A DNA stretch of 64,000 nt, taken from NCBI RefSeq assembly GCF_024223415.1, contig NZ_CP100502.1; one strand, written 5' to 3'. Below the pieces are notes generated by a model. That model was given only the letters and a program-made list of their open reading frames with translations. It had not been told where the DNA came from and searched no databases. Source of the stretch: Escherichia coli. GTDB taxonomy: Bacteria; Pseudomonadota; Gammaproteobacteria; Enterobacterales; Enterobacteriaceae. Made by a program: the position numbers and the translations under genes. Below, one piece after another: positions 15,128 to 32,811 of the stretch (positions within the stretch are counted from its first letter, which is position 1; each line of letters starts with the position of its first letter).

Positions 15128-15943
15128 ATGAATAAATCGCTCATCATTTTCGGCATCGTCAACATAACCTCGGACAGTTTCTCCGATGGAGGCCGGTATC
15201 TGGCGCCAGACGCAGCCATTGCGCAGGCGCGTAAGCTGATGGCCGAGGGGGCAGATGTGATCGACCTCGGTCCGGCATCCAGCAATCCCGACGCCGCGCC
15301 TGTTTCGTCCGACACAGAAATCGCGCGTATCGCGCCGGTGCTGGACGCGCTCAAGGCAGATGGCATTCCCGTCTCGCTCGACAGTTATCAACCCGCGACG
15401 CAAGCCTATGCCTTGTCGCGTGGTGTGGCCTATCTCAATGATATTCGCGGTTTTCCAGACGCTGCGTTCTATCCGCAATTGGCGAAATCATCTGCCAAAC
15501 TCGTCGTTATGCATTCGGTGCAAGACGGGCAGGCAGATCGGCGCGAGGCACCCGCTGGCGACATCATGGATCACATTGCGGCGTTCTTTGACGCGCGCAT
15601 CGCGGCGCTGACGGGTGCCGGTATCAAACGCAACCGCCTTGTCCTTGATCCCGGCATGGGGTTTTTTCTGGGGGCTGCTCCCGAAACCTCGCTCTCGGTG
15701 CTGGCGCGGTTCGATGAATTGCGGCTGCGCTTCGATTTGCCGGTGCTTCTGTCTGTTTCGCGCAAATCCTTTCTGCGCGCGCTCACAGGCCGTGGTCCGG
15801 GGGATGTCGGGGCCGCGACACTCGCTGCAGAGCTTGCCGCCGCCGCAGGTGGAGCTGACTTCATCCGCACACACGAGCCGCGCCCCTTGCGCGACGGGCT
15901 GGCGGTATTGGCGGCGCTGAAAGAAACCGCAAGAATTCGTTAA
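15128..15943 (+). CDS. sul2: Sulfonamide-resistant dihydropteroate synthase Sul2
   Basis: 271 aa from MNKSLIIFGIVNITSDSFSDGGRYLAPDAAIAQARKLMAEGADVIDLG. Confidence 0.95.
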   Translation: MNKSLIIFGIVNITSDSFSDGGRYLAPDAAIAQARKLMAEGADVIDLGPASSNPDAAPVSSDTEIARIAPVLDALKADGIPVSLDSYQPATQAYALSRGVAYLNDIRGFPDAAFYPQLAKSSAKLVVMHSVQDGQADRREAPAGDIMDHIAAFFDARIAALTGAGIKRNRLVLDPGMGFFLGAAPETSLSVLARFDELRLRFDLPVLLSVSRKSFLRALTGRGPGDVGAATLAAELAAAAGGADFIRTHEPRPLRDGLAVLAALKETARIR

Positions 15944-16029
15944 CTGCACATTCGGGATATTTCTCTATATTCGCGGTTCAGCAGGCATGTCCCCTTTGAG
16001 GGCGACCCGACGACAGGATAATCGACCTT

Positions 16030-16275
16030 ATGGTGCGCAAATATTTCGGCACAGACGGTATTCGTGGCAAAGCCAACGAAGGCGCGATGACGGCGGAAAC
16101 CGCCTTGCGCGTCGGCATGGCGGCTGGCCGTGTCTTTCGTCGCGGTGACCACCGCCATCGTGTCGTGATCGGCAAGGATACGCGCCTGTCGGGCTATATG
16201 CTTGAACCCGCGCTCACAGCCGGTTTCACCTCGATGGGCATGGACGTATTCCTTTTTGGCCCGCTGCCGACAACG
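16030..16275 (+). pseudogene. glmM: Truncated phosphoglucosamine mutase fragment, the usual sul2-associated relic
   Basis: [36 protein letters not shown]... then loss of similarity. Confidence 0.8.
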
Positions 16276-16507
16276 TATAGGAAGAATAAACGCCCTTTTC
16301 ACCCAAGTCCAACAGCTTTGGACCGCAGTTGACTCTTTCGACACCCCTGCGATGCAACCCAATCCGGCTGACGGGGAGCCAGCAACGCTGAAAATTTACC
16401 CTCCTCTTTCCCACTAGCGGCTCCTTTTCCGACAACCAGCACGGCGGATCCCTGCCGCGGCGCTGTGAACGCAGCATTTTGATTGGTATCGTTGGCCTTC
16501 AGGCTCG

Positions 16508-17644
16508 TCAGTCAAACAGACCCAGGAGCAGCTCAGCCGGTGGCGCCCGGCTTTCGGGTAACGCCCTGGTCCCGCTGGTTTCGGCTTTGTGCTTCAGGTG
16601 ATCAAGGATCTGCTTGATCACTATAGGGTCTTCAATGCAGGCGATGACTTTCATGGCGCCGCCGCAGCCGCTGCAGGTCTCGATGTCGATATTGAAAACA
16701 CGCTTGAGCCGTTGCGCCCATGTCATCGACGCTCGCCGTTGTGCTGGTGTTGCCGGTTCATCAGCCACCCTGACCTTGTTGCCCCTGCCCCGTTTTGCCG
16801 GCGTGACCAACGCCCGGTGCCGACTGTTGGGTGCGAACACCCCGTGGAAGCGGGTTAGGTTGACTCTGGGCTTCGGTACCAGGGCGGCCAGCCTTGCAAT
16901 GAAATCCAATGGTTCGAAAATGACGTGCGTGGTGCCGTCCCGGTACGGCGTCTTGAGCTGGTAGCGCACGTTGCCGCCTCGTGTTAACGACAGCCGCTTC
17001 TCGGATACCGCCGGGCGGCTGATGTACCGGCACAGCCGTTCGAGCTTCTTGCGTTCATCGGCCCTGGCCGCCACGCCGGCGTGCAGGCTGGACCCGGCTA
17101 CCTTGCCAATCCCGTCACCGAACGGATCACCACTGGTCGGCAGAGTTTGCAAAGTGAACACCTTTCGCCCCGCCTGTGAACCGACAGCGATACGGTAAGT
17201 GATCGAGTGCCCCAGCAGGGGTGTCATCGGGTCGTCATCCACCGCATCCGAGGCCAGATAGCTGTTTTCGACATCCCGTTCCAGCAGGCCTTGCCGTTCC
17301 AGATAGCGACCCACCCGGTGGGCGATGGTGTGCGTCAGCTGGGTGAGCTCTGGGGTGGTCGGCGCCTTGACCCAGCGGAAACGCGCTGAGCCGTGGGATT
17401 GCTCGACATACACACCGTCGAGAAACAGCATGTGGAAGTGAACATTCAGATTGAGCGCCGATCCAAAACGCTGGATCAGGGTGACCGCGCCCGTCTTGGC
17501 CACTTGGTGGGTATGGCCCGCTTTCTTGACCAGGTGCGTGGCAATGACGCGGTAAACGATGCCCAGCACCCACCCCATGATCTCGGGCCGGCTGGCAAAC
17601 AGGAAACGCAGCTGAAACGGGAAGCTCAACACCCACTGACGCAT
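16508..17644 (-). CDS. IS91-family ISCR2-like transposase, probably lacking the N-terminal zinc-binding region
   Basis: 378-aa ORF with HFH (HUH) and YxxxY motifs and ISCR-type C-terminus IDIETCSGCGGAMKVIACIEDPIVIKQILDHL; adjacent to sul2 and truncated glmM. Confidence 0.7.
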   Translation of the reverse strand: MRQWVLSFPFQLRFLFASRPEIMGWVLGIVYRVIATHLVKKAGHTHQVAKTGAVTLIQRFGSALNLNVHFHMLFLDGVYVEQSHGSARFRWVKAPTTPELTQLTHTIAHRVGRYLERQGLLERDVENSYLASDAVDDDPMTPLLGHSITYRIAVGSQAGRKVFTLQTLPTSGDPFGDGIGKVAGSSLHAGVAARADERKKLERLCRYISRPAVSEKRLSLTRGGNVRYQLKTPYRDGTTHVIFEPLDFIARLAALVPKPRVNLTRFHGVFAPNSRHRALVTPAKRGRGNKVRVADEPATPAQRRASMTWAQRLKRVFNIDIETCSGCGGAMKVIACIEDPIVIKQILDHLKHKAETSGTRALPESRAPPAELLLGLFD

Positions 17645-17971
17645 GGGTTGTTCGTCCTGGACGGCGAACCCGGCAAAGCTCCTGTAACATTGCTTCTTCC
17701 TGTTTTGTTAGCGTGACTGTCACGCTAGCGCCTTCCTCTTTGAGTCGCGCGCGGCGCCGGGCCTGGCGAATACGGGCTTGTTCACGCTGTCGGTCATTCA
17801 TATTTTTCCTCCACGTGACTGTCACGTTGAATTAAACTGGGCATTACCCCTGCGGGGCCGTTCTGCCGTGCTGCGCATCGAGCCGCTACGCGTCTCGCCC
17901 CTTCGGGCGGCGGCCACTAATGCCTCCGGCCTGCGGCCTCCGCGCTTCGCTTGTGACGATATCTGAATCGT

Positions 17972-17988
17972 TATATACTGTGTATATA
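17972..17988. promoter_or_regulatory. Palindromic operator-like site TATATAC-N3-GTATATA upstream of the toxin-antitoxin operon
   Basis: Perfect 7-bp inverted arms about 25 bp upstream of the antitoxin start. Confidence 0.4.
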
Positions 17989-18010
17989 CGTAGTAATGAC
18001 GAGGTGATAA

Positions 18011-18280
18011 ATGGCACAGGTTAATATGAGTTTAAGAATCGACGCTGAACTGAAGGATGCTTTTATGGCCGCTGCAAAAAGCATGGACCGTAATGGCTCT
18101 CAGTTAATTCGGGATTTTATGCGCCAGACCGTTGAACGGCAGCATAATACCTGGTTCCGTGACCAGGTTGAGGCAGGACGTCAGCAACTCGAGCGCGGCG
18201 ATGTGCTTCCCCATGACATGGTCGAATCTTCCGCTGCTGCATGGCGGGATGAAATGAGCAGGAAGGTTGCCGGTAAATGA
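18011..18280 (+). CDS. Antitoxin, ParD/RelB-like (YacA-like of IncI plasmids)
   Basis: 89-aa ORF with ribbon-helix-helix-like N-terminus; 4-nt overlap with downstream toxin gene. Confidence 0.7.
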   Translation: MAQVNMSLRIDAELKDAFMAAAKSMDRNGSQLIRDFMRQTVERQHNTWFRDQVEAGRQQLERGDVLPHDMVESSAAAWRDEMSRKVAGK

Positions 18281-18558
18281 TGGAGATATTCTGGACCATG
18301 CTGGCCAGCCAGGACAGGAAGCGCATTCGTAAGTACATTGCGGAGCAGAACCTGATGGCCGCCATTGAACTGGACGAACGGATTGGTTATTCAGCCAGCA
18401 GCCTGGCCGGGCAGCCGTATAAAGGCCGCAACGGTCGTGTGGAAGGTACCCGGGAACTGGTTATTCACCCGCATTTTGTTCTGGTTTATGAGGTCGACAG
18501 CCAGTGGGGAAAAGTGTATATCCTGCGCGTGTTGCATACTGCACAGAAGTGGCCATAG
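18277..18558 (+). CDS. Toxin, RelE/ParE superfamily (YacB-like)
   Basis: 93-aa ORF translationally coupled to the antitoxin; typical RelE/ParE size and composition. Confidence 0.7.
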   Translation: MMEIFWTMLASQDRKRIRKYIAEQNLMAAIELDERIGYSASSLAGQPYKGRNGRVEGTRELVIHPHFVLVYEVDSQWGKVYILRVLHTAQKWP

Positions 18559-18597
18559 AGGGGCTGTCCGGATATAAGGAAAGGAGATGCAATAACC

Positions 18598-19446
18598 ATG
18601 AATAATGATGAGCTGGCCACCAGACGTGCGCAGGCGATTGCCGAAGACAGGTGTTTCTCGAAAGGACGTTTGCGCGATGAATTCAGAATGAAACCAGCCC
18701 CCGGTGCTGAGCCGGTTAAGTGGTATAAAAATAGTTATGGTGGCAGGTTCGCTGTATACCGAATTGCAGACTGTGTTCCGATGCGTGAGAAACGCCCTCT
18801 GACGAGTAAACAACAGCTGGCTGGCCAGCGGCTTTCCGTTTTATCCCGACTAAACAGCACCAGTGGCCGGATGGCACGGCAGGCATATGACTGGCTGAGT
18901 CTGGCACCACTCTTTCTGGATACTGAAACGACAGGACTGGATAATACCGCGGAAGCCCTGGAAATCGGCCTGACCGATGCGGCCGGTCAGGTGGTATTTG
19001 AAACCAGGCTGAAGCCCACGGTCGCCATCGGGGCGCAGGCCGCCGCCGTGCATGGTATCAGTGAGCAGGCTCTCTGCGGCGCACCATCATGGACAGATGT
19101 GGCGCGGCAACTGCGTCATGCAATCGGGGACCGACCAGTAATTATCTTTAATGCCCGGTTCGACATCCGCATTCTGAAACAGACTGCTGCCGCACATAGC
19201 GATCCGGCTGACTGGCTGGAAGAACTGACGGTATATTGTGCGATGGAGCTGGCTGCAGGATATTATGGGGCCACCAACCGCTATGGCACGATTTCACTGG
19301 CCTGTGCTGCCAGTCAGGCCGGACTGACCTGGGAAGGGCAGGCACACTCAGCGATCGCCGACGCACGGATGACGGCAGGGGTGGTAAACGCTATTGCTGC
19401 ATATCATCTGGAACTGCTGCAGGAACAGGCACGGCTGAAAATCTGA
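18598..19446 (+). CDS. DEDD-family 3'-5' exonuclease (DnaQ-like) with N-terminal extension
   Basis: Exo I motif FLDTETTGL; 282 aa; strong SD AAGGAGA. Confidence 0.75.
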   Translation: MNNDELATRRAQAIAEDRCFSKGRLRDEFRMKPAPGAEPVKWYKNSYGGRFAVYRIADCVPMREKRPLTSKQQLAGQRLSVLSRLNSTSGRMARQAYDWLSLAPLFLDTETTGLDNTAEALEIGLTDAAGQVVFETRLKPTVAIGAQAAAVHGISEQALCGAPSWTDVARQLRHAIGDRPVIIFNARFDIRILKQTAAAHSDPADWLEELTVYCAMELAAGYYGATNRYGTISLACAASQAGLTWEGQAHSAIADARMTAGVVNAIAAYHLELLQEQARLKI

Positions 19447-19517
19447 CCGCCTGGCCTGTATACCGCAATCATTTACGTTATCCAGACGTAAATCCGCCGC
19501 TTGTTGCTGTCAGCATG

Positions 19518-19549
19518 TTAATGCTAATGTATGTGTACATTAGCATTAA
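19518..19549. repeat. 32-bp perfect palindrome TTAATGCTAATGTAT-GTG-TACATTAGCATTAA (copy 1)
   Basis: Read directly; near-identical copy at 20069-20108. Confidence 0.8.
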
Positions 19550-19562
19550 TGAGGGATGATAT

Positions 19563-20036
19563 GTGAGAGACAAAACCAGGGAGGCCATGCGGCTTTTTTT
19601 AGGCGGCAGGTGCTACACGGCTGAAAAACTTGAAAAGGATTATCTGGCTGAAGTGGCTAATTACAGTAACGACCGCTGGGAAGCACCGCAACGTGCCTCA
19701 CGCCTGGCTGCCAGCGTAAAGCGTTACAAGACATCAGAAATGCTGCGCTTTATTTTTGCTACCATTGCCTACGATCCCGATCCAGATTTAACCCCGCTAA
19801 CTGTGAGACGTTTGTGCAAGGCATTGTTCGGCAGAACCGGAAGCCAGTGGCTGGTTGTTGAAGTTTTTGGGGAGAAGGGGCGTCAGCACCGCAGCGCGGA
19901 CAGCAATCCGGAGATGGTGGAAAAAATGGCTGCCAGATATCGTCATGCCGCCGAACTACACTGGTCCGCAACGCTGGCAGAAATTGAACGGGTAAAGCGG
20001 CTTTATCAGACGAAAATTAAGAAATCCAAAAAATAA
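19563..20036 (+). CDS. Hypothetical protein bracketed by two copies of a long palindrome
   Basis: 157-aa ORF (GTG, or ATG at 19587); no recognisable domain. Confidence 0.5.
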   Translation: MRDKTREAMRLFLGGRCYTAEKLEKDYLAEVANYSNDRWEAPQRASRLAASVKRYKTSEMLRFIFATIAYDPDPDLTPLTVRRLCKALFGRTGSQWLVVEVFGEKGRQHRSADSNPEMVEKMAARYRHAAELHWSATLAEIERVKRLYQTKIKKSKK

Positions 20037-20068
20037 GTGGGTTGACTGCCATTGTTGTTCTTCTCCTT

Positions 20069-20108
20069 CATCATTAATGTTAATGTATGCATACATTAGC
20101 ATTAATGA
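20069..20108. repeat. Near-perfect palindrome (copy 2) downstream of the 19563-20036 ORF
   Basis: TCATTAATGTTAATGTATGCATACATTAGCATTAATGATG. Confidence 0.8.
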
Positions 20109-20170
20109 TGGTGCGTTAAAGTATCACTGGTATAATCTGGTAAAGAACATATTGAGAATGAGAACTTATC

Positions 20171-20404
20171 ATGTCGTCACGCAACTCTGTACATGATTTT
20201 ATAATGCTGCTCCCGGCGCTGCTGTTGGTTGGGTGGTTAGTTTTGGTGATAATTCTCATGTTTAGGGATGATAAATGTGACAAAACTTACCGTGAAGGTT
20301 CGTTTCCCGAATTTATTTGTCTCCATTCTGATCGCTCGTCACTTCGAGAAACCGATTCTGAGAGACTCATTGTCAAATATACAGAAATAAAATCACAAAA
20401 ATAG
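20171..20404 (+). CDS. Small predicted membrane protein (uncertain)
   Basis: 77-aa ORF with hydrophobic N-terminal helix; AT-rich; weak SD. Confidence 0.3.
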   Translation: MSSRNSVHDFIMLLPALLLVGWLVLVIILMFRDDKCDKTYREGSFPEFICLHSDRSSLRETDSERLIVKYTEIKSQK

Positions 20405-20778
20405 GTAAAACCAATAATACTATAGCTAAAAAATAGTTACTTTTCTGTATCACCCTGTCTCTCTCTGCTTTTTCATGGCTACTGTCATATTTATGTCTGT
20501 TGCGCGGTTTTGTTACTTTTTCATGACCGAACCCGAAATTTTGCGCGTCAATAAGAGACGTTGTGTAAACTCAGTCCTTTTATCTGGCAGGTTAACCCCT
20601 ATCAATCTTAGGATGAAACCACGCCATCCTCTGTTTGCCTGGTTATTAATTTCATAAAGACGATTGTTTTCCTCTCGTAGTTTTGTCCACTCTAAACAAA
20701 GTGTTATATCATCCAGTTCTGTGATGTGTTTCACTTTTCCATTGACAGTTACAGTGTTTATTCCATTTCCTGTGAGCA

Positions 20779-21312
20779 TCATCTTATGCCTTTTTTATCT
20801 TCATTTGGGACCGTGCTTTTCTTCGGAGTATCACTATTCGTTAACTGCTGTTTATCAATAAAATTCCTGATGTTATCAAGTGCTTCCTTTGTTTTTAGAA
20901 TGCGCTTGATATCCATTTCATCCCGCCCGGTCATTCTTTTTCCGGACAAAAGACGCTCAAGAAGCTCCTGTTTCGCATCAGGAGAATCTTTGGCGAGATC
21001 CATCAGGTTAAGCAAATCTTCACGATCGAGAGGAAAGAAGTATTTTACAAAATACTTGAAAAGCGAAAGAAAGTAGTATGCTGTCCATGCAATACAGAAA
21101 CCGATTCTGAGAAACTCATTGTCAACTATACAGAAATACAGGTATACAATCAGGAGAATAGGTAAAATCCATAATACTATAGCTAAAAAAATATATACGG
21201 GGATCAGGCGTCTGTATGCCCGTTCATGTTTATTCAGGATGAATAAAATCTTCTCCGCTTCTGAATCACACATAACATTCTCTTCCCATTTTTTCTGATA
21301 CGTAATGTCCAC
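20779..21312 (-). CDS. Predicted two-helix membrane protein
   Basis: 177-aa AT-rich ORF; hydrophobic stretch LIPVYIFLAIVLWILPILLIVYLYFCIV; contains one copy of a roughly 90-bp direct repeat. Confidence 0.5.
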   Translation of the reverse strand: MDITYQKKWEENVMCDSEAEKILFILNKHERAYRRLIPVYIFLAIVLWILPILLIVYLYFCIVDNEFLRIGFCIAWTAYYFLSLFKYFVKYFFPLDREDLLNLMDLAKDSPDAKQELLERLLSGKRMTGRDEMDIKRILKTKEALDNIRNFIDKQQLTNSDTPKKSTVPNEDKKGIR

Positions 21313-21328
21313 CTGTTATCAGGAGTGT

Positions 21329-21931
21329 TTATTGCCCAGAAATATTCTCCTGCTGTGCCTGCGTCCTGAGCCACTTTTGTTCTAATGTCGCCAGTCTGCG
21401 ACCGGCACTCTGTGCTTCAGAGTCTGAGACCTGCCCTTTGGGGTGACCATCCAGGCCATAACGTGGGACGCCGGCGACAGCTGTCCGCTGCAGATATACG
21501 CGGCGGGATGTGATGCAGGACACTGCACAGAGCCATTCGTCCATGGTCAGTTCTGTCTCCGGGTGTTCTGCCAGAAATGCCGAAATATCATTGCTTATGC
21601 CAATTTTCAGGGGAATAAATCCACCACCTTCAGCACGAAGATGAGGAAACAGGGCCTTTATTTTTTCCACGCACTCGTGAGTATACTCACGGGTCCAGTG
21701 GGAGGGACGTGGAAAACGGTGTCTTTTCTTTTTCTTCTTCCTGGCTGGCGCTTCGGGGATATGTGTTTCGACGGCAGATGAATTTATTCCGGCGGGGGCT
21801 GATTCTGCCGTCTGTTCAGTAAATACAGGTGCGATAATATCTGTTTTTTCGGATAAGGACGGTGGCGAAAAAGTACGACGTTTTTTCACCACAATGACGG
21901 GAGTTTTCCTTTCTTCCTGATTTTTTCCCAT
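21329..21931 (-). CDS. FinO/ProQ-domain RNA-binding protein (FopA-like)
   Basis: 200-aa ORF; basic N-terminus; C-terminal region resembling the FinO fold (KIKALFPHLRAEGGGFIPLKIGISNDISAFLAEHPE). Confidence 0.55.
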   Translation of the reverse strand: MGKNQEERKTPVIVVKKRRTFSPPSLSEKTDIIAPVFTEQTAESAPAGINSSAVETHIPEAPARKKKKKRHRFPRPSHWTREYTHECVEKIKALFPHLRAEGGGFIPLKIGISNDISAFLAEHPETELTMDEWLCAVSCITSRRVYLQRTAVAGVPRYGLDGHPKGQVSDSEAQSAGRRLATLEQKWLRTQAQQENISGQ

Positions 21932-22287
21932 AAATACCTCGGCTGGCTGGTTTTACTCTTTAATAATATCACAATCCATAAATTAGTAAATTTCCCATCA
22001 GGTGATTTTTCATGGCTAATAAGTCCATTCTCTGAATATTTATACTCGAGGTAGTTACAGTTATGGCGTGACAGTCGAATTGATATTCTACTGAACCCTG
22101 ACAGAAACATGGTTGATATATTCTATCACTTTAATGTTGTCATGATATAAATAAAAACAATTCATTTGAAAGGATATCAGAAGAAGATATCGGGGCGCAC
22201 AGTTCATCTCTGCCTTTGTTTCATGGGGGGTTCTTTGTATATTTTACTTACTGTTTAAGCATGTACATAAGGAGTGCTTTCATTATG

Positions 22288-23631
22288 CCAATGATACTTG
22301 TAAAGAAGAATCCCCGGGGCAAAGTGATTCGGGAGCTTAGCAGTGAGGAAGAGACTGCAGTAAAGACGGTCTGTGGACTGAAAAGGCCAGCAACCATGGC
22401 ACAACATAACCTGGCCAATGATCTTCTCCGGGAAATGCGTGAGTATGATGCATGGTTACAGTGTGACTGTATTCCGGGAGATTCGCCGGCCATGAATTTT
22501 GCTGCTCTTAAAAACAATACGGGTACTCTTTATCTGTCCAGTTTTAATCATGAGCATGCACCTGAATGCCCCATGTATCGTCAGTTATCCGGAAATGAAG
22601 AGGAAACATCCTTCGGAGCAAGCCGGCATCCCGTTAGCACCCGTATAAATTACAGAAACTTTTTACCACCTGATGACAGTAATTCTGTTATCAGACTGCA
22701 GGCCCGCTCTGCTTACCATAATGGTGAGCGCTCCTCCGTTCGCAAGAAACGTCCGCGCCTTGGCCGTTTACTCCTGTCGCTTATTGAAGATGCAGGGCTG
22801 AATAAACTGGATTCCCTGGCTAATCCCCGTATCCGGACTAATTATCGTGAGTGTCTTGATGCCATACGGCAGGTTACACTACAGCAGGAGTATATTCGGG
22901 GAAGAGCCTTATCTGAAATTATCCATTTCCGGCCAGGAATGTCTGAAAGGTCTCAGGAGCGGTTAATGGAAACGCTGGAGAATTCAGAACGACACTGGCC
23001 TGCCAGAAGAAAGCATATGTTCTTTCAGATTTTTATGGCGCAGCACATCTGTCGTGATGCTGTGGAAATTCACTGGGCGAACGGTAATATTCAGGTCATC
23101 AGACCTGTGCGGGGGATCAGTATTAATGGTGAAGCGCAGGGCGGAATACGTCCCCCTTACTGGGTTATTCTTGCTTTTTGCCGGAGTGCCGATGGCAGAA
23201 TCATCTGCAGTGAAGGGTATGCTCATGCTCTTTATCAACTGACATGTCCGGTGCCTGTGGACAGCAAACTGGAACGAAACACGCTCACTGCTCTTCTGAA
23301 TGTGGCCAGCTGGCTTAAAAGAAAGCCAGGTACGCCGGAATTAAGTCTGGAAAGGCCCCTGTTTGATACAGAAGTTTATGTTAATGGTGAAAAGAAATAT
23401 GTACTGCCGGATTTCATTGTCACAGCAAGGGCTCCTGACGGAAAGACGGCCAGAGTGGTCATCGAAACGATGGGATATGAAGACAGTGATTACTGCGCGA
23501 GAAAATCCAGGCAGCATACCGGCATGAAGCAGATTGGTGTTCTGCATACCGATCCACCGAAATGGCTGGATAACGATCATCCCCCTTTTAAGAAACATAT
23601 GTACGGTGTTTTTATGCATCTCAGGTACTGA
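22288..23631 (+). CDS. Hypothetical 447-aa protein, Cys/His-rich N-terminus and possible PD-(D/E)xK-like C-terminal motif
   Basis: Start MPMILVKKNPRG with SD; CDCIPG...HEHAPEC; C-terminal LPDFIV...VVIETMGYEDSDYCARK. Confidence 0.6.
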   Translation, partial: PMILVKKNPRGKVIRELSSEEETAVKTVCGLKRPATMAQHNLANDLLREMREYDAWLQCDCIPGDSPAMNFAALKNNTGTLYLSSFNHEHAPECPMYRQLSGNEEETSFGASRHPVSTRINYRNFLPPDDSNSVIRLQARSAYHNGERSSVRKKRPRLGRLLLSLIEDAGLNKLDSLANPRIRTNYRECLDAIRQVTLQQEYIRGRALSEIIHFRPGMSERSQERLMETLENSERHWPARRKHMFFQIFMAQHICRDAVEIHWANGNIQVIRPVRGISINGEAQGGIRPPYWVILAFCRSADGRIICSEGYAHALYQLTCPVPVDSKLERNTLTALLNVASWLKRKPGTPELSLERPLFDTEVYVNGEKKYVLPDFIVTARAPDGKTARVVIETMGYEDSDYCARKSRQHTGMKQIGVLHTDPPKWLDNDHPPFKKHMYGVFMHLRY

Positions 23632-23807
23632 GATATTTTGTGGCTCAGTTCTGTAACTTTTCCCGTAACATTGTCTGTTGTTACGGGAAAGTCCGGTTTT
23701 TGTATTGCACCAGAGAATACCCAGACTGTGATGCTGCCACAGTGTCAGCAGGCTTTCTGAACGGTATAACACCACTTCATGTTAATGATAATTACTATCA
23801 TTAAATC

Positions 23808-23868
23808 TTGACATGCCATTTTCTCCTTAATAAATTAGTACTGTATATGTATCCATATACGTAAGCAG
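23808..23868 (+). promoter_or_regulatory. Colicin promoter (-35 TTGACA) with overlapping LexA/SOS operator
   Basis: TTGACA at 23808-23813; TACTGTATATGTATCCATATACGTAAGCAGT at 23838-23868. Confidence 0.6.
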
Positions 23869-23909
23869 TTAATTCATTTGTTTTCCTCAGAGGATGAAGG
23901 AGATACCGA

Positions 23910-25790
23910 ATGTCTGACCCTGTACGTATTACAAATCCCGGTGCAGAATCGCTGGGATATGATTCAGATGGCCATGAAATTATGGCCGTTGATATTTATG
24001 TAAACCCTCCACGTGTCGATGTCTTTCATGGTACCCCGCCTGCATGGAGTTCCTTCGGGAACAAAACCATCTGGGGTGGAAACGAGTGGGTCGATGATTC
24101 CCCAACCCGAAGTGATATCGAAAAAAGGGACAAGGAAATCACAGCGTACAAAAACACGCTCAGCGCGCAGCAGAAAGAGAATGAGAATAAGCGTACTGAA
24201 GCTGGAAAACGCCTTTCTGCGGCAATTGCTGCAAGGGAAAAAGATGAAAACACACTGAAAACACTCCGTGCCGGAAACGCAGATGCCGCTGATATTACAC
24301 GACAGGAGTTCAGACTCCTGCAGGCAGAGCTGAGAGAATACGGATTCCGTACTGAAATCGCCGGATATGATGCCCTCCGGCTGCATACAGAGAGCCGGAT
24401 GCTGTTTGCTGATGCTGATTCTCTTCGTATATCTCCCCGCGAGGCCAGGTCGTTAATCGAACAGGCTGAAAAACGGCAGAAGGATGCGCAGAACGCAGAC
24501 AAGAAGGCCGCTGATATGCTTGCTGAATACGAGCGCAGAAAAGGTATTCTGGACACGCGGTTGTCAGAGCTGGAAAAAAATGGCGGGGCAGCCCTTGCCG
24601 TTCTTGATGCACAACAGGCCCGTCTGCTCGGGCAGCAGACACGGAATGACAGGGCCATTTCAGAGGCCCGGAATAAACTCAGTTCGGTGACGGAATCGCT
24701 TAAGACGGCCCGTAATGCATTAACCAGAGCTGAACAACAGCTGACGCAACAGAAAAACACGCCTGACGGCAAAACGATAGTTTCCCCTGAAAAATTCCCG
24801 GGGCGTTCATCAACAAATCATTCTATTGTTGTGAGTGGTGATCCGAGGTTTGCCGGTACGATAAAAATCACAACCAGCGCGGTCATCGATAACCGTGCAA
24901 ACCTGAATTATCTTCTGACCCATTCCGGTCTGGACTATAAACGCAATATTCTGAATGACCGGAATCCGGTGGTGACAGAGGATGTGGAAGGTGACAAGAA
25001 AATTTATAATGCTGAAGTTGCTGAATGGGATAAGTTACGGCAACGATTGCTTGATGCCAGAAATAAAATCACCTCTGCTGAATCTGCGATAAATTCGGCG
25101 AGAAATAACGTCAGTGCCAGAACAAATGAACAAAAGCATGCAAATGACGCTCTTAATGCCCTGTTGAAGGAAAAAGAGAATATCCGTAGCCAGCTTGCTG
25201 ACATCAATCAGAAAATAGCTGAAGAGAAAAGAAAAAGGGATGAAATAAATATGGTAAAGGATGCCATAAAACTCACCTCTGATTTCTACAGAACGATATA
25301 TGATGAGTTCGGTAAACAAGCATCCGAACTTGCTAAGGAGCTGGCTTCTGTATCTCAAGGGAAACAGATTAAGAGTGTGGATGATGCACTGAACGCTTTT
25401 GATAAATTCCGTAATAATCTGAACAAGAAATATAACATACAAGATCGCATGGCCATTTCTAAAGCCCTGGAAGCTATTAATCAGGTCCATATGGCGGAGA
25501 ATTTTAAGCTGTTCAGTAAGGCATTTGGTTTTACCGGAAAAGTTATTGATCGTTATGATGTTGCTGTGGAGTTACAAAAGGCTGTAAAAACGGACAACTG
25601 GCGTCCATTTTTTGTAAAACTTGAATCACTGGCAGCAGGAAGAGCTGCTTCAGCAGTTACAGCATGGGCGTTTTCCGTCATGCTGGGAACCCCTGTAGGT
25701 ATTCTGGGTTTTGCAATTATTATGGCGGCTGTGAGTGCGCTTGTTAATGATAAGTTTATTGAGCAGGTCAATAAACTTATTGGTATCTGA
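23910..25790 (+). CDS. cib: Pore-forming colicin of the Ia/Ib group (immunity partner favours Ib)
   Basis: 626-aa ORF MSDPVRITNPGAESLGYDSDGHEIMAVDIYVNPPRVDVFHG...; hydrophobic channel domain at C-terminus. Confidence 0.9.
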   Translation: MSDPVRITNPGAESLGYDSDGHEIMAVDIYVNPPRVDVFHGTPPAWSSFGNKTIWGGNEWVDDSPTRSDIEKRDKEITAYKNTLSAQQKENENKRTEAGKRLSAAIAAREKDENTLKTLRAGNADAADITRQEFRLLQAELREYGFRTEIAGYDALRLHTESRMLFADADSLRISPREARSLIEQAEKRQKDAQNADKKAADMLAEYERRKGILDTRLSELEKNGGAALAVLDAQQARLLGQQTRNDRAISEARNKLSSVTESLKTARNALTRAEQQLTQQKNTPDGKTIVSPEKFPGRSSTNHSIVVSGDPRFAGTIKITTSAVIDNRANLNYLLTHSGLDYKRNILNDRNPVVTEDVEGDKKIYNAEVAEWDKLRQRLLDARNKITSAESAINSARNNVSARTNEQKHANDALNALLKEKENIRSQLADINQKIAEEKRKRDEINMVKDAIKLTSDFYRTIYDEFGKQASELAKELASVSQGKQIKSVDDALNAFDKFRNNLNKKYNIQDRMAISKALEAINQVHMAENFKLFSKAFGFTGKVIDRYDVAVELQKAVKTDNWRPFFVKLESLAAGRAASAVTAWAFSVMLGTPVGILGFAIIMAAVSALVNDKFIEQVNKLIGI

Positions 25791-25807
25791 CACATAATGA
25801 TGCCCTT

Positions 25808-26155
25808 TCATTTTCCTGAAAGGGCTTTGCAGAGTATAAAAATTAAGTAAATGGCAACCACAGGAACTGATATAACGAAACAGAATAATTCAAATATTGC
25901 AGTTAAGCTTCCGCCAACTGGATTTGTAAAGAAGTCTTTTTGCCAGAATTCTTTCCCTGTAAACCTTATTACCATTTTCTGTATTATCCTCATTGAAAAA
26001 GGAAAAGTAATGGCACTGATAATGCATCCGATGAACGCATAAAACATTCTTGCATTTTCCTGGTTATCTTTCCATCCCAGATAAAAAACTGTAAGAATAA
26101 TGAGGATTGGTATCAGGCTTTTCAGTAAATACTTTACAGATATATCCAGTTTCAT
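25808..26155 (-). CDS. imm: Colicin Ib-type immunity protein (inner membrane)
   Basis: 115-aa hydrophobic ORF convergent with the colicin gene. Confidence 0.8.
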   Translation of the reverse strand: MKLDISVKYLLKSLIPILIILTVFYLGWKDNQENARMFYAFIGCIISAITFPFSMRIIQKMVIRFTGKEFWQKDFFTNPVGGSLTAIFELFCFVISVPVVAIYLIFILCKALSGK

Positions 26156-26273
26156 CTGGTTTCTCCTTTATTGTTATCGTGTACCGGTGCGTGATAACAT
26201 AATCACAGCATGATAATAATAATCAATAACAATAAGCTGTGTCACGTTTACATCATGGAACGGAGGTGCTCCT

Positions 26274-26594
26274 GTGACCTTTGAGCAGAAAAAAGCTCGG
26301 GCCATTGCCCTGATGGACAGCAAAAAGATGTGGCGGAGCAATTATGCCCCTCCTCTTCTGCGTATTCTCTGGCGGCTGGGTATCCGGCTTCCGCCATTAC
26401 CCTTTATGCCGTTCTGGCAGGTCACGGTGCTGACGGGGGGCTTATGGGGCATTTCCTGGGGATGTGCAATGTGGTTTATCTACTGGGGGCCGTCAGGAAT
26501 GGTGGCAGGTGAGGCCATTATTATAAGTATCACGGGGGGGGGTTTTGTCCGGACTGTGCATGGCCTCTTTCCACTGGTGGCGCAGGAAAGTTAA
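26274..26594 (+). CDS. Small predicted membrane protein
   Basis: 106-aa ORF with two Trp-rich hydrophobic segments. Confidence 0.45.
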   Translation: MTFEQKKARAIALMDSKKMWRSNYAPPLLRILWRLGIRLPPLPFMPFWQVTVLTGGLWGISWGCAMWFIYWGPSGMVAGEAIIISITGGGFVRTVHGLFPLVAQES

Positions 26595-26641
26595 CCGGCT
26601 GCCACCATGGGATGATGTGTAAACCGTGCACAGGCGTGTTC

Positions 26642-27232
26642 TTACGGAGCGGCACTTTCATTTATCTGTACGCGAACCTCCATTCCTGCATCGTGACAGG
26701 CCTGCAGCCACTGCGCCACTTCCAGCGGATCGCCCTCCCGGCGTACCACCCTGCCTTCTTTATTCCATAACTGCAGACAGGTGCTGCCGTCTAGACGCAC
26801 CACAAAATCCCCACGGCAGGCCTGATACGTTATGCCGTTCAGTTGCACCGCCAGATCAGTGGCAGAAGTGCCATCTGCGGGCAGACCTGCTGCCGGGACC
26901 AGCGGCAGTACGACGACTTCTGCCGCACGCTGTTCTGCCCGGAGGCGGTCCTGTTCTGCCAGCAGCAGAGGCTGTGCCACGGCCCGGCCGGCGTCCGTCA
27001 GCTCTACTGCCAGCTGCAGGTTCGGAGCGCGCAGGGTACGCAGCCAGCCGGCATCCTCCAGACGACGGCAGGAGGCGCGCAGGTTTGGCCCGTAGACCGG
27101 GGCTTCCCCGCTTCGCTCCAGCACCCGTTCTATGTCCCGCGTCAGCACGGGTCCTGGCCGTTTTTCATCAAGGGCAGCCAGCACAATCAGCACTCTCCGC
27201 TGCAGTGGCGACGGTCGGCGGCTCTGGGTCAT
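26642..27232 (-). CDS. Hypothetical protein with winged-helix-like N-terminus; markedly GC-rich gene
   Basis: 196-aa ORF; noticeably more GC-rich than flanking DNA; start overlaps stop of upstream ORF. Confidence 0.55.
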   Translation of the reverse strand: MTQSRRPSPLQRRVLIVLAALDEKRPGPVLTRDIERVLERSGEAPVYGPNLRASCRRLEDAGWLRTLRAPNLQLAVELTDAGRAVAQPLLLAEQDRLRAEQRAAEVVVLPLVPAAGLPADGTSATDLAVQLNGITYQACRGDFVVRLDGSTCLQLWNKEGRVVRREGDPLEVAQWLQACHDAGMEVRVQINESAAP

Positions 27233-27489
27233 TACCTGTCATCCTCCGGCCAGATGAGGTTTCTGAGGCGCTGAAAGTCGGCGTCAATGAGCTCCTGTCT
27301 CTTTATGGCATTCATTGAGGCATAGCCATTTATGGCCAGTTCATGCCAGAAGATCAGCACGGCTCCGGCTTTGGCTGACTCGCAGAGATAAATCGCGCCC
27401 TGGCTGTCCAGATTGCATTCCCGGATGCGTCGTTCCGCAAACCGGGTCAGTTGTTCATAGCTGAGTGAAAACGTCATTTCCTGATCCAT
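27232..27489 (-). CDS. Hypothetical small protein, first gene of a two-gene operon
   Basis: 85-aa ORF translationally coupled to the downstream gene. Confidence 0.5.
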   Translation of the reverse strand: MDQEMTFSLSYEQLTRFAERRIRECNLDSQGAIYLCESAKAGAVLIFWHELAINGYASMNAIKRQELIDADFQRLRNLIWPEDDR

Positions 27490-27839
27490 CCTGCACGCTC
27501 CATCTGATAATATTCTGACAGGTAATAATCATATCCTGAATGATTTGTGTGCTCCTGATTTCTGATAATATCAGATATGGTTTTATCATCAATGATGAAA
27601 ATCATATCTGATATGATTTTATGTGTATTTTTTATTATCATATCATTTGCGTCTTTTCTGCCGCGCAGATCCGGTTTCCGGCGGTTCCGGAGATTTAAAT
27701 TCCATCGGTACTGACAGGGCGTTAAACACAGGTATTATCGAACGGTTCTGTTTTCTAATGCTAAGCTTCAAACCAGCTGCCCATGCCGTCAATACAGATG
27801 CACCGATGCGCTTGCGTGGCTTTTCAGGGAGATAAAGTT

Positions 27840-28841
27840 ATGGCCGATCCATTCAATCTGCAGACCGATGTGGTCAGGCAGCATACGGTTCCCCGTTTTT
27901 TACTGAAGCATTTCAGTACGCCGGGAAAGGGTAAGCGGCAGCGCTTATACGCCTTTGACAAGGCTGCCGGGCGCGCCTATGCCACCACGCCGGATGACGC
28001 GACCGTCCGCAACACGTTCTACAACCTCGATAATCACCCGGACCGTCTGAGTCTTGAACCACTGCTGGGGATTTACGAGCACCACGCGGCACCGGTAATT
28101 GCAGCCCTGCTGGCGCACAGGGATATTCGCAGGCTGACAGATGATGAACGCTACAGGCTGGCCGTGTTTGTTGCCGTGCAGCGCGCACGAACCTTCGGTG
28201 AACTGGAGCGTATCTCAGGCATGATTTCGGTGCTTACCGATAAGATGGAGGCCATCGGCTCGACTAAAGAGCAGGCCATGGAAACCCTGGGCCTGTCGTC
28301 CGGGGGCGATACCAAGGATATTTTTCTGCGGCAGCTCGTCCAGCAGGTGTCACATATTGATCTCCTGCTGAAAAAGGACTGGTACCTTCTGGAAACCAGG
28401 CCAGAACGTCCGTTTTACGTATCAGACAATCCCGTAGTGCTTAAGAACAGCAATGACTTCGGTCCGTACGGTAATCTTGGTCTGGCCGTTCGCGGGATAC
28501 AGATTTACCTCCCCCTGTCATCGACGCTGATGCTGGCCATGTATTGCCCCTCCATCCGTGAACAGATGGTTCGTCAAAAGCAGCATCTTCAACATCTGCT
28601 CGCCAGGGCGCCGCATCTTATCCCCCGTCACATTCGGCCTTTTGAAAGACTGGAACATATCCGGAGGTATACGGACTATCTTCTTATGCCGCTTACCCCG
28701 GAGCATGTCACGCATTACAATTCCCTGCAGGTGGAGTTCGCGGAGCAGTACGTGTTCTGCGGTGAAAAGGATTTCTCTCTGGTTGAGAGAATGCTGGCCG
28801 ATAGTGAACGCTACCGGACTGGCCCGCGGTTTACGTTTTAG
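27840..28841 (+). CDS. DUF4238-family protein, candidate single-gene anti-phage defence
   Basis: N-terminal HTVPRFLLKHF matching the DUF4238 signature; 333 aa from MADPFNLQT with SD GGGAG. Confidence 0.65.
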   Translation: MADPFNLQTDVVRQHTVPRFLLKHFSTPGKGKRQRLYAFDKAAGRAYATTPDDATVRNTFYNLDNHPDRLSLEPLLGIYEHHAAPVIAALLAHRDIRRLTDDERYRLAVFVAVQRARTFGELERISGMISVLTDKMEAIGSTKEQAMETLGLSSGGDTKDIFLRQLVQQVSHIDLLLKKDWYLLETRPERPFYVSDNPVVLKNSNDFGPYGNLGLAVRGIQIYLPLSSTLMLAMYCPSIREQMVRQKQHLQHLLARAPHLIPRHIRPFERLEHIRRYTDYLLMPLTPEHVTHYNSLQVEFAEQYVFCGEKDFSLVERMLADSERYRTGPRFTF

Positions 28842-29016
28842 TCCGAATTCCGGCCTCACCTGTGCCGGAAAATGACGGCGGGAGCCCCTGTTGTACAGAG
28901 GAGTTTTGCCGTGTTGCACCCACGCGAAAGCGGCAGTGGTCACAGGGACCACCGCCGTAAGGAGATGGTGAGTATCTGTTGACATTCACCATCAGTTCGT
29001 GTAGCGTTGCGGCTAC

Positions 29017-29361
29017 TTACTTTAGCAGAGTAAATCTTCGGCAAGTGGCGGTAACCACTTTACCGATACCCCAGAGTAGTCCGCGCTTTACTGGCGTGAC
29101 CCATAGTGCCGAAACCGCAAATTTCGACACTATAAAGGCCTTCAGCCAGGGCACTACAAACCAGACCACCGCAGCACAGAGACCCACATAGGCCATAAGA
29201 AGCAAAATACAGAGACAGGCGCTCCAGTATTGCTTCTGGCAAATATGGTCCCTGGTTCCGATAACCAGGCGTTTAACGGTGGAGAAAATCGTCCAAATAA
29301 AATGGATTTCAGTCTGGAATGGGAATAGAACCGTTCCCTCGGTGTCTAACAAGTTTTTCAT
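29017..29361 (-). CDS. Predicted small membrane protein
   Basis: 114-aa ORF with SD GGGAGG 7 nt upstream; two hydrophobic helices. Confidence 0.4.
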   Translation of the reverse strand: MKNLLDTEGTVLFPFQTEIHFIWTIFSTVKRLVIGTRDHICQKQYWSACLCILLLMAYVGLCAAVVWFVVPWLKAFIVSKFAVSALWVTPVKRGLLWGIGKVVTATCRRFTLLK

Positions 29362-29859
29362 AGAACCCTCCCGGGTAAGTATTTACAAAAGTAACTGTCT
29401 TGATTTTGGTCATCTCAATAACCTCGTTTTTAAGTCAAAAGGCACCCGGCGCCTCACACACGTGAACGCTGTTAATGCCGTACAGAATGTTTTATCTTTC
29501 AGCTCTGTTATGATGTGTTCATTCGCATCCTCCTGTTTGTCATACCGATTTTAAGCTCGTTCCGGGGGCTCCCCGGAAAAAAATCCAAAAAAATCCGGGC
29601 CGGAATGGTGATAACCAGTCTGGCGGGAAATAAACGGATCTTGTTGGGGTGGAGCGGGACGGAACAATACTATGAGAGTAATGTTAACAGAAATCACCGC
29701 CTTTGTCAAGGCGCACTTATCCATTAAAGCAACTATAGCATAGTAATACTGATGTCAATTTAGCAAAAAGTGCTATCCGTCGTTCTGCTGTATGTCTATT
29801 TTCCTTCACCTCCGGGCAACCTGGCGAATACATTTTTACTTTTTTTGCCCCCTGCCCCC

Positions 29860-30114
29860 TCAGAGTACCGAGACGAAGAGATGTGTGGCCACGCCCTGCC
29901 GGCGTCCGGTAAACGGCCCCTGCGCCGTACCCGCTGACAGCCGGCATTTTCGCCCGGAACGGGTGAAGGCTGACTTGAGCGATTTGGAGGCCTCCCGCAG
30001 CGCATCCTCAAGACCGGTGTTCAGACAGAGCCTCACCACCGCCCCTGAAGGGAGACGGGCAATCTCCGCGAAACTCTCTCCGCCGGTAACATAGCGGCTC
30101 TGTCGTCCTTTCAT
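29860..30114 (-). CDS. Small GC-rich ORF downstream of the 308-aa gene
   Basis: 84-aa ORF with SD AGGAGG. Confidence 0.35.
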   Translation of the reverse strand: MKGRQSRYVTGGESFAEIARLPSGAVVRLCLNTGLEDALREASKSLKSAFTRSGRKCRLSAGTAQGPFTGRRQGVATHLFVSVL

Positions 30115-30158
30115 TGTATCCTCCTGATGATGCAGTTGTGCCCGCAGATCCGGGTCCG

Positions 30159-31085
30159 TTACAGCAGGTTTTCTTCCACCACGTTGATCAGCGCCTGAGC
30201 GACATCCCCGAGCGGGGTGGGATTGTGATCTTCTTCCACACCGTTGGTGTAAAGGTGAAGCTCACACACCCCGTCCACAAAACGGAAGGCCTTGTCCCAC
30301 CTGTCGGGTTCGGCGCTGATCAGGGCGCTGTAGCCCGGATCGGCGGTAAAGAGGCGGTATTCAAGCTCCGGGAACGGGATGTTCCACATCTGGGTGGCGT
30401 AATTTTCCGGGAGGCTCAGTGTAACGCGCCATGCGCCGCGGGCGTAATTTTCCGGGCGGTAGATACGCACCGTGATGCCATCCCGCGTCCAGCTGTCGCC
30501 GGTGAGGGCAGGCAGTTTTTTCAGGGCGCGGATGGCCTCGATATCTTGGTAAAAGCGGTGTTTTTTTTCCCTCAGTTGCGAGTAGAAGATATTTTTCCAG
30601 GCCTGGTCGATGGTTTCCCTGTCCCGGCCGGCGATCTCGGCAAACAGGGAGAAGGTCAGGGAGATCCCGCGCGGGATATTTTTCCACCCCTTAAGCACCT
30701 GGTCGGCACGGACCTGCAGGAAGGGGGTGTTGTTCAGTACCAACCGGCGGAGCTCCTCTTCCGTCGAGATCCCCAGCAGCTTCTGGTATTCCTGATTCCA
30801 GCGGGTGATAAAATGGCTCTGGTAGCGCTGCTCCATGACCTTAGCGTCCAGATAACTGGCCAGCTCCTCATCCAGGGAGGCGATGAGCGGGTTCTTCAGG
30901 GCAAAGCTGTCGATGACGTCGCGGAAGCTGTCTTCCAGGAACTCACGCAGAAACGTCGCCTTTGGCTTACGGGCGTGGCTTGCCAGGTCGGTGATCACCC
31001 GGTCGGTGTCAGCGGGGATGTTCCGCAGGGTATACGTTACGCTCTCTCCACCGTCGTTTGTCATGTCATGTTCTTTTTCACTCAT
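30159..31085 (-). CDS. Hypothetical protein with ribbon-helix-helix-like N-terminus and uncharacterised C-terminal domain
   Basis: 308-aa ORF; N-terminal VTYTLRNIPADTDRVITDLASHARKPKATFLREFL. Confidence 0.55.
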   Translation of the reverse strand: MSEKEHDMTNDGGESVTYTLRNIPADTDRVITDLASHARKPKATFLREFLEDSFRDVIDSFALKNPLIASLDEELASYLDAKVMEQRYQSHFITRWNQEYQKLLGISTEEELRRLVLNNTPFLQVRADQVLKGWKNIPRGISLTFSLFAEIAGRDRETIDQAWKNIFYSQLREKKHRFYQDIEAIRALKKLPALTGDSWTRDGITVRIYRPENYARGAWRVTLSLPENYATQMWNIPFPELEYRLFTADPGYSALISAEPDRWDKAFRFVDGVCELHLYTNGVEEDHNPTPLGDVAQALINVVEENLL

Positions 31086-31616
31086 CCCGCGTACCTTTTC
31101 ATGTGAGGGGGCATTGCTGCAATACTTATACTCTATCCTGGTTTTGAGTGTCTTTAAATACTGCGAAGCATACGTTTTTATAATTCGTATGCTTCGCTGT
31201 CTGTTTTCTGTTCACTTCCTTTTCTGAGATCCGAAAACCCCAGGTCACGGATCTTCCTCTCCCCCCACACAACGCCACCTCCTGTAAGCACAATATGTAG
31301 TGCTGCATTCAGCTGCTGATGACACTATATGTTGTGTTATTTCCCTTGCCTGTGATGCGCCGTGCAGGGGCGGAAAACAGCGATATGATTATTTCCTCAT
31401 CGTGGTACACTTCCGGAAAGTTGTGATATTCCGGAAAGTCGGATCTGACGGAAACGGCTCTCCGGTAATTTAACTGCGTGGTTATATGGATGCTTGTTAT
31501 CATGGTGATGATGATAACGGCATGATGTTATCAGACGGCGTGACGGTAAGGGCAGTGATGATGGATGACGTTATCGCATGACCGTCCCTGCCCGGAAAAG
31601 AAAAAAGGAGTCACCC

Positions 31617-32030
31617 ATGTTTTTTATTGAGAATGAAGGTCAGGCTGTCGCCAGAACGGATTACTGGCAGTCTGTACAGGCGCAGGCCGGATATGTCTAC
31701 CTCAGCTGGAATGCCGGCGCAGCCAGGCTGCTTGTCCCGGATGCGGCAAAACATTTACTCAGGGAGATGCGGGGAGCTGAGTACGTCATCATCAGTAAGG
31801 GAACGCTCCATGGCCGCGATGCGCTGGAACTGGTATTTGAAGACGGCAGCGATGCGCCGTTCGTGATCCACATGCTGAGTGAGCAGTGCGATCGCCTGCT
31901 CCCCGAAAACAACCAGGGAGGGGGTTTTGTTGTCACCGTCTGGACGCGTGGCGGTAACCAGCTCCGTTATCCGGGAAAATACCGGGTTGTGGAAAACCTG
32001 CCCGACGTTTCCCCGTGGAGTGAACACTGA
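31617..32030 (+). CDS. Hypothetical protein co-transcribed with tyrosine recombinase
   Basis: 137 aa from MFFIENEGQ with SD AAGGAG; stop overlaps recombinase start. Confidence 0.5.
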   Translation: MFFIENEGQAVARTDYWQSVQAQAGYVYLSWNAGAARLLVPDAAKHLLREMRGAEYVIISKGTLHGRDALELVFEDGSDAPFVIHMLSEQCDRLLPENNQGGGFVVTVWTRGGNQLRYPGKYRVVENLPDVSPWSEH

Positions 32031-32031
32031 T

Positions 32032-32811
32032 ATGCAGCACCTGCCGGCACCGATCCACCATGCCCGGGATGCCGCTCAGCTTCCTGTTGCCATCGATTAT
32101 CCGGCAGCGCTGGCACTCCGCCAGATGTCGATGGTTCATGATGAACTGCCCAAATACCTGCTGGCCCCTGAAGTGAGCGCCCTGCTCCATTACGTCCCGG
32201 ATCTGCGCCGCAAGATGCTGCTGGCCACACTGTGGAACACCGGTGCGCGCATTAATGAAGCACTGGCGCTGACGCGGGGGGATTTTTCGCTCACGCCTCC
32301 GTATCCGTTTGTGCAGCTTGCGACCCTGAAACAACGGACCGAAAAAGCCGCCAGGACGGCAGGAAGAACGCCCGCCGGGCAGCAGACTCACCGGCTGGTT
32401 CCGCTCTCCGACTCCTGGTACGTCAGCCAGCTGCAGACGATGGTGGCCACACTGAAAATCCCCATGGAACGGCGTAATAAACGAACAGGCAGGACAGAGA
32501 AAGCGCGGATCTGGGAAGTGACGGACAGAACGGTCAGGACCTGGATTGGGGAGGCGGTTGCCGCCGCTGCCGCTGATGGAGTGACGTTCTCTGTCCCGGT
32601 CACGCCACATACGTTCCGCCATTCCTATGCGATGCATATGCTGTATGCCGGTATACCGCTGAAGGTCCTGCAGAGTCTGATGGGGCATAAGTCCATCAGC
32701 TCAACGGAGGTCTACACGAAGGTGTTTGCACTGGATGTGGCTGCACGGCACCGGGTGCAGTTTTCGATGCCTGAGTCCGATGCGGTGTCTATGCTCAAAA
32801 GAATTCCATAA
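32032..32811 (+). CDS. Tyrosine site-specific recombinase (XerC/D-like; probable multimer-resolution enzyme)
   Basis: 259 aa; C-terminal HTFRHSYAMHMLYAGIPLKVLQSLMGHKSISSTEVYTKV (R-H-R-Y motif region). Confidence 0.8.
   Translation: MQHLPAPIHHARDAAQLPVAIDYPAALALRQMSMVHDELPKYLLAPEVSALLHYVPDLRRKMLLATLWNTGARINEALALTRGDFSLTPPYPFVQLATLKQRTEKAARTAGRTPAGQQTHRLVPLSDSWYVSQLQTMVATLKIPMERRNKRTGRTEKARIWEVTDRTVRTWIGEAVAAAAADGVTFSVPVTPHTFRHSYAMHMLYAGIPLKVLQSLMGHKSISSTEVYTKVFALDVAARHRVQFSMPESDAVSMLKRIP

Follow-up and report, generated by a model that had tools for sequence, protein, structure and literature searches.

Colicin Ib (cib) and its immunity gene (imm) were sequenced in 1986 by Mankovich et al. 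(as cited in PMC3879352); PMC3879352 also mentions both natural promoters of the pair. The cib promoter (Pcib) is doubly repressed by LexA and Fur (PMC3879352). A cib promoter reporter and the ColIb protein itself, detected by immunoblot, are induced by mitomycin C and by the iron chelator diethylenetriaminepentaacetic acid (DTPA), and are maximally induced by both together (PMC3879352). Pcib is described with one LexA site, in contrast to the two overlapping sites of most group A colicins (PMC4675545, citing Gillor et al. 2008), and a putative Fur site is placed upstream of its -35 hexamer (PMC4675545). Group B systems of this kind have no cognate lysis gene, and in Salmonella release is mediated by the lysis genes of prophages (PMC7374059). 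Here we describe a cib–imm locus carried on 64,000 nucleotides of Escherichia coli DNA (contig NZ_CP100502.1; this whole stretch is referred to as the window), which covers the part of an IncI-type conjugative plasmid concerned with replication, together with its leading and early transfer regions. With a probability of about 97%, the locus is the colicin Ib locus of such a plasmid, in an allele that is essentially that of ColIb-P9.

Described relatives of the locus

The nearest reference is ColIb-P9 (Shigella sonnei plasmid P9, NC_002122 8024-10684), to which window positions 23640-26300 are 99.96% identical (1 mismatch in 2661 bp). The two loci agree in gene content, order and orientation, in the promoter, the hairpin and the Fur and LexA boxes, and their flanks agree as well, with yagA upstream and a frameshifted DUF6404 gene plus two hypothetical genes downstream. 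At the protein level, Cib differs only at D547E (D here, E in P9) and Imm is identical. The window is collinear with ColIb-P9 from yacA onward (99.7%), whereas between repA and yacA the carrier plasmid here is longer by about 15.6 kb of transposon, integron and resistance DNA.

The same architecture, at 99.0% DNA identity over the locus, is found on pCol1B9_SL1344 (Salmonella Typhimurium SL1344, NC_017718), whose locus served to demonstrate both the dual repression and the dependence of release on prophages (PMC3879352, PMC7374059). Seven Cib and three Imm residues differ between the two, and DUF6404 is intact there (115 aa) but frameshifted here. It was also observed that the colicin coding sequence of SL1344 (NC_017718 8900-10174) is annotated from 8900, giving 424 aa, while the full 626-aa frame from 8294 is open; the 424-aa start looks like an annotation artefact, and this in the plasmid of the ColIb experiments.

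Colicin Ia (PDB 1cii; cia/iia on IncI1 plasmids, e.g., NZ_CP122723) has the same length of 626 aa and the same translocation and CirA-binding domains, and it shares the promoter, the operators, the convergent layout and the lack of a lysis gene. It differs in that its channel domain and its 111-aa immunity protein have diverged, and therefore the immunity specificity of the two types is different.

The colicin E1 operon (cea-imm-kil) has a related channel domain (2i88, E 3e-33) and an immunity protein of the same family, PF03526. Colicin E1 is a group A, Tol-dependent colicin that uses BtuB; its immunity gene runs opposite to the colicin gene, and LexA controls the operon. A lysis gene lies downstream in the E1 operon, and its LexA boxes are two and overlap (PMC3879352, PMC4675545); no Fur control has been described for it. 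The Ib locus, in contrast, carries a single LexA box together with a Fur box, and it lacks a lysis gene.

The colicin Ib toxin and its immunity protein

The locus consists of a 626-aa colicin ORF (open reading frame) and a convergent 115-aa immunity ORF, with 17 nt between their stop codons. What decides its type is the alignment of the channel domain and of Imm. Residues 432-626 of Cib are the chain deposited in the PDB as 'Colicin 1B' (8iom/9k2h), identical except for the first residue of that chain, and Imm is identical to ColIb-P9 WP_000762570.1, the 'colicin 1B immunity protein'. The reference loci were NC_002122 (ColIb-P9) and NC_017718 (pCol1B9_SL1344) for Ib, and NZ_CP122723 with its 111-aa 'colicin 1A immunity protein' for Ia. 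Compared with the latter, the last 200 aa of Cib are 44% identical and Imm is 25% identical (115 versus 111 aa). The locus is therefore colicin Ib. A previous model-made reading of the letters alone (the sequence-only reading) had favoured Ib over Ia from the length of Imm, had proposed an alignment of the C-terminal 200 aa and the immunity protein with both types, and had named an Ia-type immunity protein as the outcome that would speak against it. That alignment was run and gave Ib; the immunity protein is not of the Ia type, and the preference for Ib stands.

The domain content of Cib can likewise be read directly. In Pfam, it matches PF11504 Colicin_Ia (residues 282-353, E 6e-51, 170.9 bits) and the colicin pore-forming domain PF01024 (residues 440-623, E 3e-48, 164.7 bits against a cutoff of 23.4). 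Residues 23-623 align with the colicin Ia structure 1cii, residues 281-385 match the colicin Ia R-domain fragment 2hdi_B (E 8e-64), and in the PDB search the channel domain also matches those of colicins E1, A, B, N and S4 and of pyocin S5. The hydrophobic stretch AASAVTAWAFSVMLGTPVGILGFAIIMAAVSALV, which corresponds to the C-terminal hydrophobic hairpin of a pore-forming colicin, is present. At residue 23 stands the motif EIMAV, which we take to be the TonB box, as in colicin Ia. These domains and this motif suggest that Cib belongs to the group B, TonB-dependent, CirA-binding type (Ia/Ib); for receptor use and channel activity we rely on the literature.

Imm scores 32.6 bits against Pfam PF03526, the colicin E1-type immunity family (cutoff 25). 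Its Kyte-Doolittle hydropathy profile has three peaks, centred at about residues 12-20, 46-49 and 88-106, and it thus fits this family as a putative small inner-membrane protein with three predicted transmembrane segments.

The exact sequences of the two proteins are named 'Cib' and 'Colicin-Ib immunity protein' by their sources, with IMMJ_ECOLX as the UniRef representative. The exact Cib sequence is recorded on at least 1000 contigs, and 575 plasmid records carry at least 80% of the Ib locus, with many more carrying the Ia version or remnants. Nothing that contradicts the colicin Ib assignment turned up, although three points temper it. The D547E substitution could have some effect relative to ColIb-P9. 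NCBIfam has no specific model for the colicin or for the Ib/Ia immunity proteins; for these and for YagA it returned weak coiled-coil noise (SMC, Rad50), far below cutoffs. Imm had no match among PDB sequences even at E<=1, and thus no solved relative for comparison. The pair is in other respects an ordinary and already known Ib toxin-immunity pair, a near base-for-base copy of the reference ColIb-P9.

The perfect inverted repeat between the two genes gives a stable fold, at -16.2 kcal/mol (z = -2.6) for the + strand and at -16.6 kcal/mol (z = -2.9) for the - strand. It is probably a bidirectional terminator. A consensus terminator scan made no call at 25802-25825, because no T-run follows the hairpin. 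The features of the locus are collected in Table 1.

Table 1. Features of the cib–imm locus, in window coordinates (a point in the strand column marks features without strand)
Feature	Position	Strand	Basis or remark
Fur box GTTAATGATAATTACTATC	23781..23799	+	Ends 9 bp upstream of the -35 hexamer; 16/19 matches to GATAATGATAATCATTATC
Putative cib promoter: -35 TTGACA, 17-nt spacer, -10 TAAATT	23808-23813 (-35), 23831-23836 (-10)	+	Consensus scan, 10/12 matches
LexA box TACTGTATATGTATCCATAT	23839..23858	.	Begins 3 bp past the -10 and spans the expected start of transcription; weight matrix
Right remainder ACGTAAGCAGT of the 31-nt string	23859..23869	.	Outer CAG half-site only
Shine-Dalgarno AAGGAG of cib	23897-23902	+	7 nt before ATG; direct reading
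cib, colicin Ib structural gene, 626 aa	23910..25790	+	Alignment, Pfam, PDB matches
Presumed TonB box EIMAV, aa 23-27, in the N-terminal translocation domain	23976..23990	+	Motif read at residue 23
CirA receptor-binding domain, aa 282-385	24753..25064	+	Pfam and 2hdi_B match
Pore-forming (channel) domain, aa 440-623, hydrophobic hairpin near the C-terminus	25227..25778	+	PF01024, 8iom
Type-specific cassette (channel domain and imm), Ia/Ib DNA similarity lost	25245..26178	.	blastn
9-bp perfect inverted repeat GCCCTTTCA / TGAAAGGGC, 6-nt loop	25802..25825	.	Lies between the convergent genes and overlaps with the stop codon of imm
imm, colicin Ib immunity gene, 115 aa	25808..26155	-	Alignment, Pfam; 26155 is the start-codon end
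Shine-Dalgarno AAGGAG of imm	26163..26168	-	Direct reading
Second Fur-box-like site GATAATAATAATCAATAAC	26212..26230	+	16/19 matches; AT-rich, simple sequence
Predicted imm promoter: GTGACA, 18-nt spacer, TATTAT	26216..26245	-	Consensus scan, 10/12 matches

Control of the cib promoter and release of the toxin

The sequence-only reading had placed a LexA-type operator, and with it SOS control, at the colicin promoter; the start that it gave to the element, 23808, is the first base of the TTGACA hexamer. The TTGACA-17-TAAATT arrangement is the likely cib promoter, and its hexamers and spacer are identical in the Ia locus. LexA sites were scored with a symmetrised weight matrix; the 17 chromosomal LexA sites from which it was derived score 13.0-27.6 bits (the training range). 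The 20-mer at 23839-23858 scores 15.7 bits, which is inside the training range and ranks third among about 64,000 positions, and it is invariant between the Ia and Ib loci. Some points limit this box, namely that its right half reads CAT and not CAG, that its score lies at the low end of genuine sites, and that the matrix itself rests on those 17 sites.

The LexA box forms the left part of a 31-nt operator string, TACTGTATATGTATCCATATACGTAAGCAGT, which has a single occurrence, at 23839-23869. It is unlikely that the whole string acts as a dual overlapping operator, bound cooperatively by two LexA dimers as in most group A colicin promoters. In favour of such an operator, good outer half-sites, TACTGT and GCAGT, flank the string, and two 16-mers with a 4-nt overlap (CTGT-N8-CCAT and CCAT-N8-GCAG) can be drawn within it; two overlapping LexA boxes are also usual in group A colicin promoters (PMC4675545, PMC3879352). 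But the right-hand 20-mer (23851-23870) scores -0.35 bits and ranks 259 in the window, the sole substitution between Ia and Ib within the string falls in this right part, at 23859, and PMC4675545 gives Pcib one LexA site, with Fur said to supply the 'double lock' instead. A search for the pattern CTGT-N8-ACAG with <=1 mismatch did not pick up the cib operator, as the first box has two mismatches and the second has three. We therefore read the putative cib promoter as carrying one credible LexA box and not two. A LexA box lying over the promoter and start is consistent with membership in the SOS regulon, and the dual overlapping arrangement does not appear to be present. Of what the sequence-only reading had claimed, a LexA operator is retained at 23839-23858, the right part of its string is not, and the Fur box had been overlooked.

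In the scan of the 64 kb, only two sites have <=3 mismatches to the Fur consensus, and shuffled sequences give 0.00. The first of them lies just upstream of the -35 hexamer. It is kept in the Ia locus, where a substitution at 23793 brings the Ia copy closer to the consensus, and across the whole cib promoter region the Ia and Ib loci are 99% identical. A Fur box at this position points to membership of cib in the Fur regulon. It is important to note that the presence and position of these operator-like sites are directly observed, while the binding of the repressors is taken from the literature.

The genes imm and DUF6404, which diverge, are 118 bp apart, and the second site is situated between them, in overlap with the -10 hexamers predicted for the two genes; this site is invariant in ColIb-P9, pCol1B9_SL1344 and one Ia plasmid. 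The predicted imm promoter sits in DNA common to the Ia and Ib loci. There is an outside chance that this second site is functional; immunity and its membrane-protein neighbour DUF6404 would then be under iron control together with the toxin, and DUF6404 might perhaps be an unrecognised accessory of the colicin I systems.

The sequence-only reading had also described the operon as colicin I-type, its immunity gene convergent and a lysis gene absent, and this was borne out by the ORF map and by the Pfam, lipobox and tblastn searches. Beyond the colicin stop, the small ORFs on the + strand (20-63 aa) carry neither a signal peptide nor a lipobox, and the six small + strand ORFs downstream of the stop or overlapping it have no Pfam match at E<=10. 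A lipobox regular expression for small lipoprotein-type ORFs found none in the whole 64 kb. With three colicin lysis proteins as queries, tblastn (E<=100) gave a best E of 0.06, far from the locus, which is only noise. The locus thus has the group B organisation, with no cognate lysis gene, and release therefore depends on lysis by other means.

From the sites described above and the published work, the following course can be proposed. When iron is sufficient and DNA is undamaged, Fur and LexA would both repress Pcib. Iron limitation and SOS induction would lift both repressors, and Cib would accumulate; because two repressors act on Pcib, full expression would need DNA damage as well as iron limitation. 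Imm, made convergently from its own promoter, would guard the inner membrane of the producer by neutralising the Ib channel domain specifically. The toxin would escape on lysis by other causes, such as SOS-induced prophages. On target cells, the central domain of Cib would bind the iron-regulated outer-membrane receptor CirA, and the N-terminal domain, with its presumed TonB box, would drive TonB-dependent import across the outer membrane. Finally, the C-terminal domain would form a voltage-gated, depolarising channel in the inner membrane, and the target would be killed.

Comparison with colicin Ia, completeness and plasmid context

Overall, Cib is 82% identical to colicin Ia, and the differences are unevenly distributed. 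Within residues 1-420 there are only three, at 265, 394 and 401, and none of them falls within 282-385. In blastn against the Ia locus, the window aligns at 98.1% over 23640-25244 and at 95.1% over 26179-26300, with no alignment between. The DNA similarity resumes 24 bp upstream of the imm start codon, which leaves a type-specific cassette with a GC content of 0.377, compared with 0.531 for the window. As Imm differs from the Ia immunity protein, Ia and Ib producers should not be cross-immune.

Remnants of colicin loci do occur on other plasmids. For example, a colicin-less IncI1 plasmid carries the cib promoter and the first 17 nt of cib, an IncF plasmid has a 107-aa colicin fragment, and an IS1 insertion lies under the match of another plasmid record. 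That the locus described here is likewise an inactive remnant (a pseudogene or deletion scar), and not a working toxin-immunity pair, is nevertheless highly improbable, given that both ORFs are full length, that their Shine-Dalgarno sites and promoters are intact, and that Cib is one conservative residue apart from the functional reference ColIb-P9. That it is colicin Ia (cia/iia), as could be thought from the N-terminal 420 residues, promoter, Fur box and LexA box, all near-identical to those of the Ia locus, and from the RefSeq label, which says only 'colicin Ia central receptor-binding domain-containing protein', is refuted by the alignments of the channel domain and immunity protein and is practically out of the question.

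The colicin Ib locus is carried by a plasmid closely related to pF1005-1 (NZ_OY754354, E. coli, hen, France), which is identical to the window over 1-18000 and has 2 mismatches over 17700-32300. The window is without the two copies of the insertion sequence IS21 that pF1005-1 carries. We considered whether the window is pF1005-1 itself and rejected this, as these copies are missing; pF1005-1 is a close relative only.

Directly upstream of cib is yagA (22285-23631, 448 aa as annotated), which has no Pfam or NCBIfam match. A strong terminator-like hairpin (23658-23691) with a T-run after it closes yagA and shields the cib promoter from transcription that arrives from upstream. Colicin-less IncI1 plasmids (e.g., NZ_CP091675 3501-3727) keep the yagA–cib intergenic region with the cib promoter, the Fur and LexA boxes and the start of cib. 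The match to the query ends after the first 17 nt of cib; this remnant is a deletion scar that leaves an orphan, doubly repressed promoter.

On the other side, beside imm, lies the DUF6404 gene (26274-26621; Pfam PF19942, E 6e-27). Compared with the intact 115-aa copies that pCol1B9_SL1344 and Ia plasmids carry, it is frameshifted at a run of nine G (26534-26542), and RefSeq has no coding sequence at this position in ColIb-P9 or pF1005-1. On an IncF plasmid, a colicin fragment and an immunity gene precede DUF6404 and the two hypothetical genes. Since the trio also stands beside a colicin remnant there, these genes seem to travel with the colicin locus, in the IncI plasmids covered and in the single IncF plasmid.

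Farther away, about 15.6 kb of mobile resistance DNA (about 2000-17900) contains TnAs1-family and Tn3 transposases, blaTEM-1 and sul2, and within this insert lies a class 1 integron that carries dfrA1 as well as an aadA cassette. The integrase gene of this integron, intI1 (7258-8271, - strand), has a perfect CTGT-N8-ACAG site 11 bp upstream, GACTGTTTTTTTGTACAGTC (8282-8301, 15.9 bits); SOS control of integron integrases is known. The best LexA box of the window, TGCTGTATGTATATACAGTA (37813-37832, 27.9 bits), is also a perfect CTGT-N8-ACAG site and lies just upstream of a - strand operon that evidently encodes DinI-like, umuD and Y-family polymerase functions (impCAB-type). In this region the window is collinear with ColIb-P9, and pF1005-1 has an IS21 copy there.

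The practical value of these results is one of annotation, and they make no addition to the biology of colicins. The assignment to the Ib allele nonetheless decides which competitors the host kills and to which producers it is immune. As cib–imm is located on a multiresistance IncI plasmid (TEM-1, dfrA1, aadA and sul2), it may aid competition of the host in inflamed, iron-poor guts.

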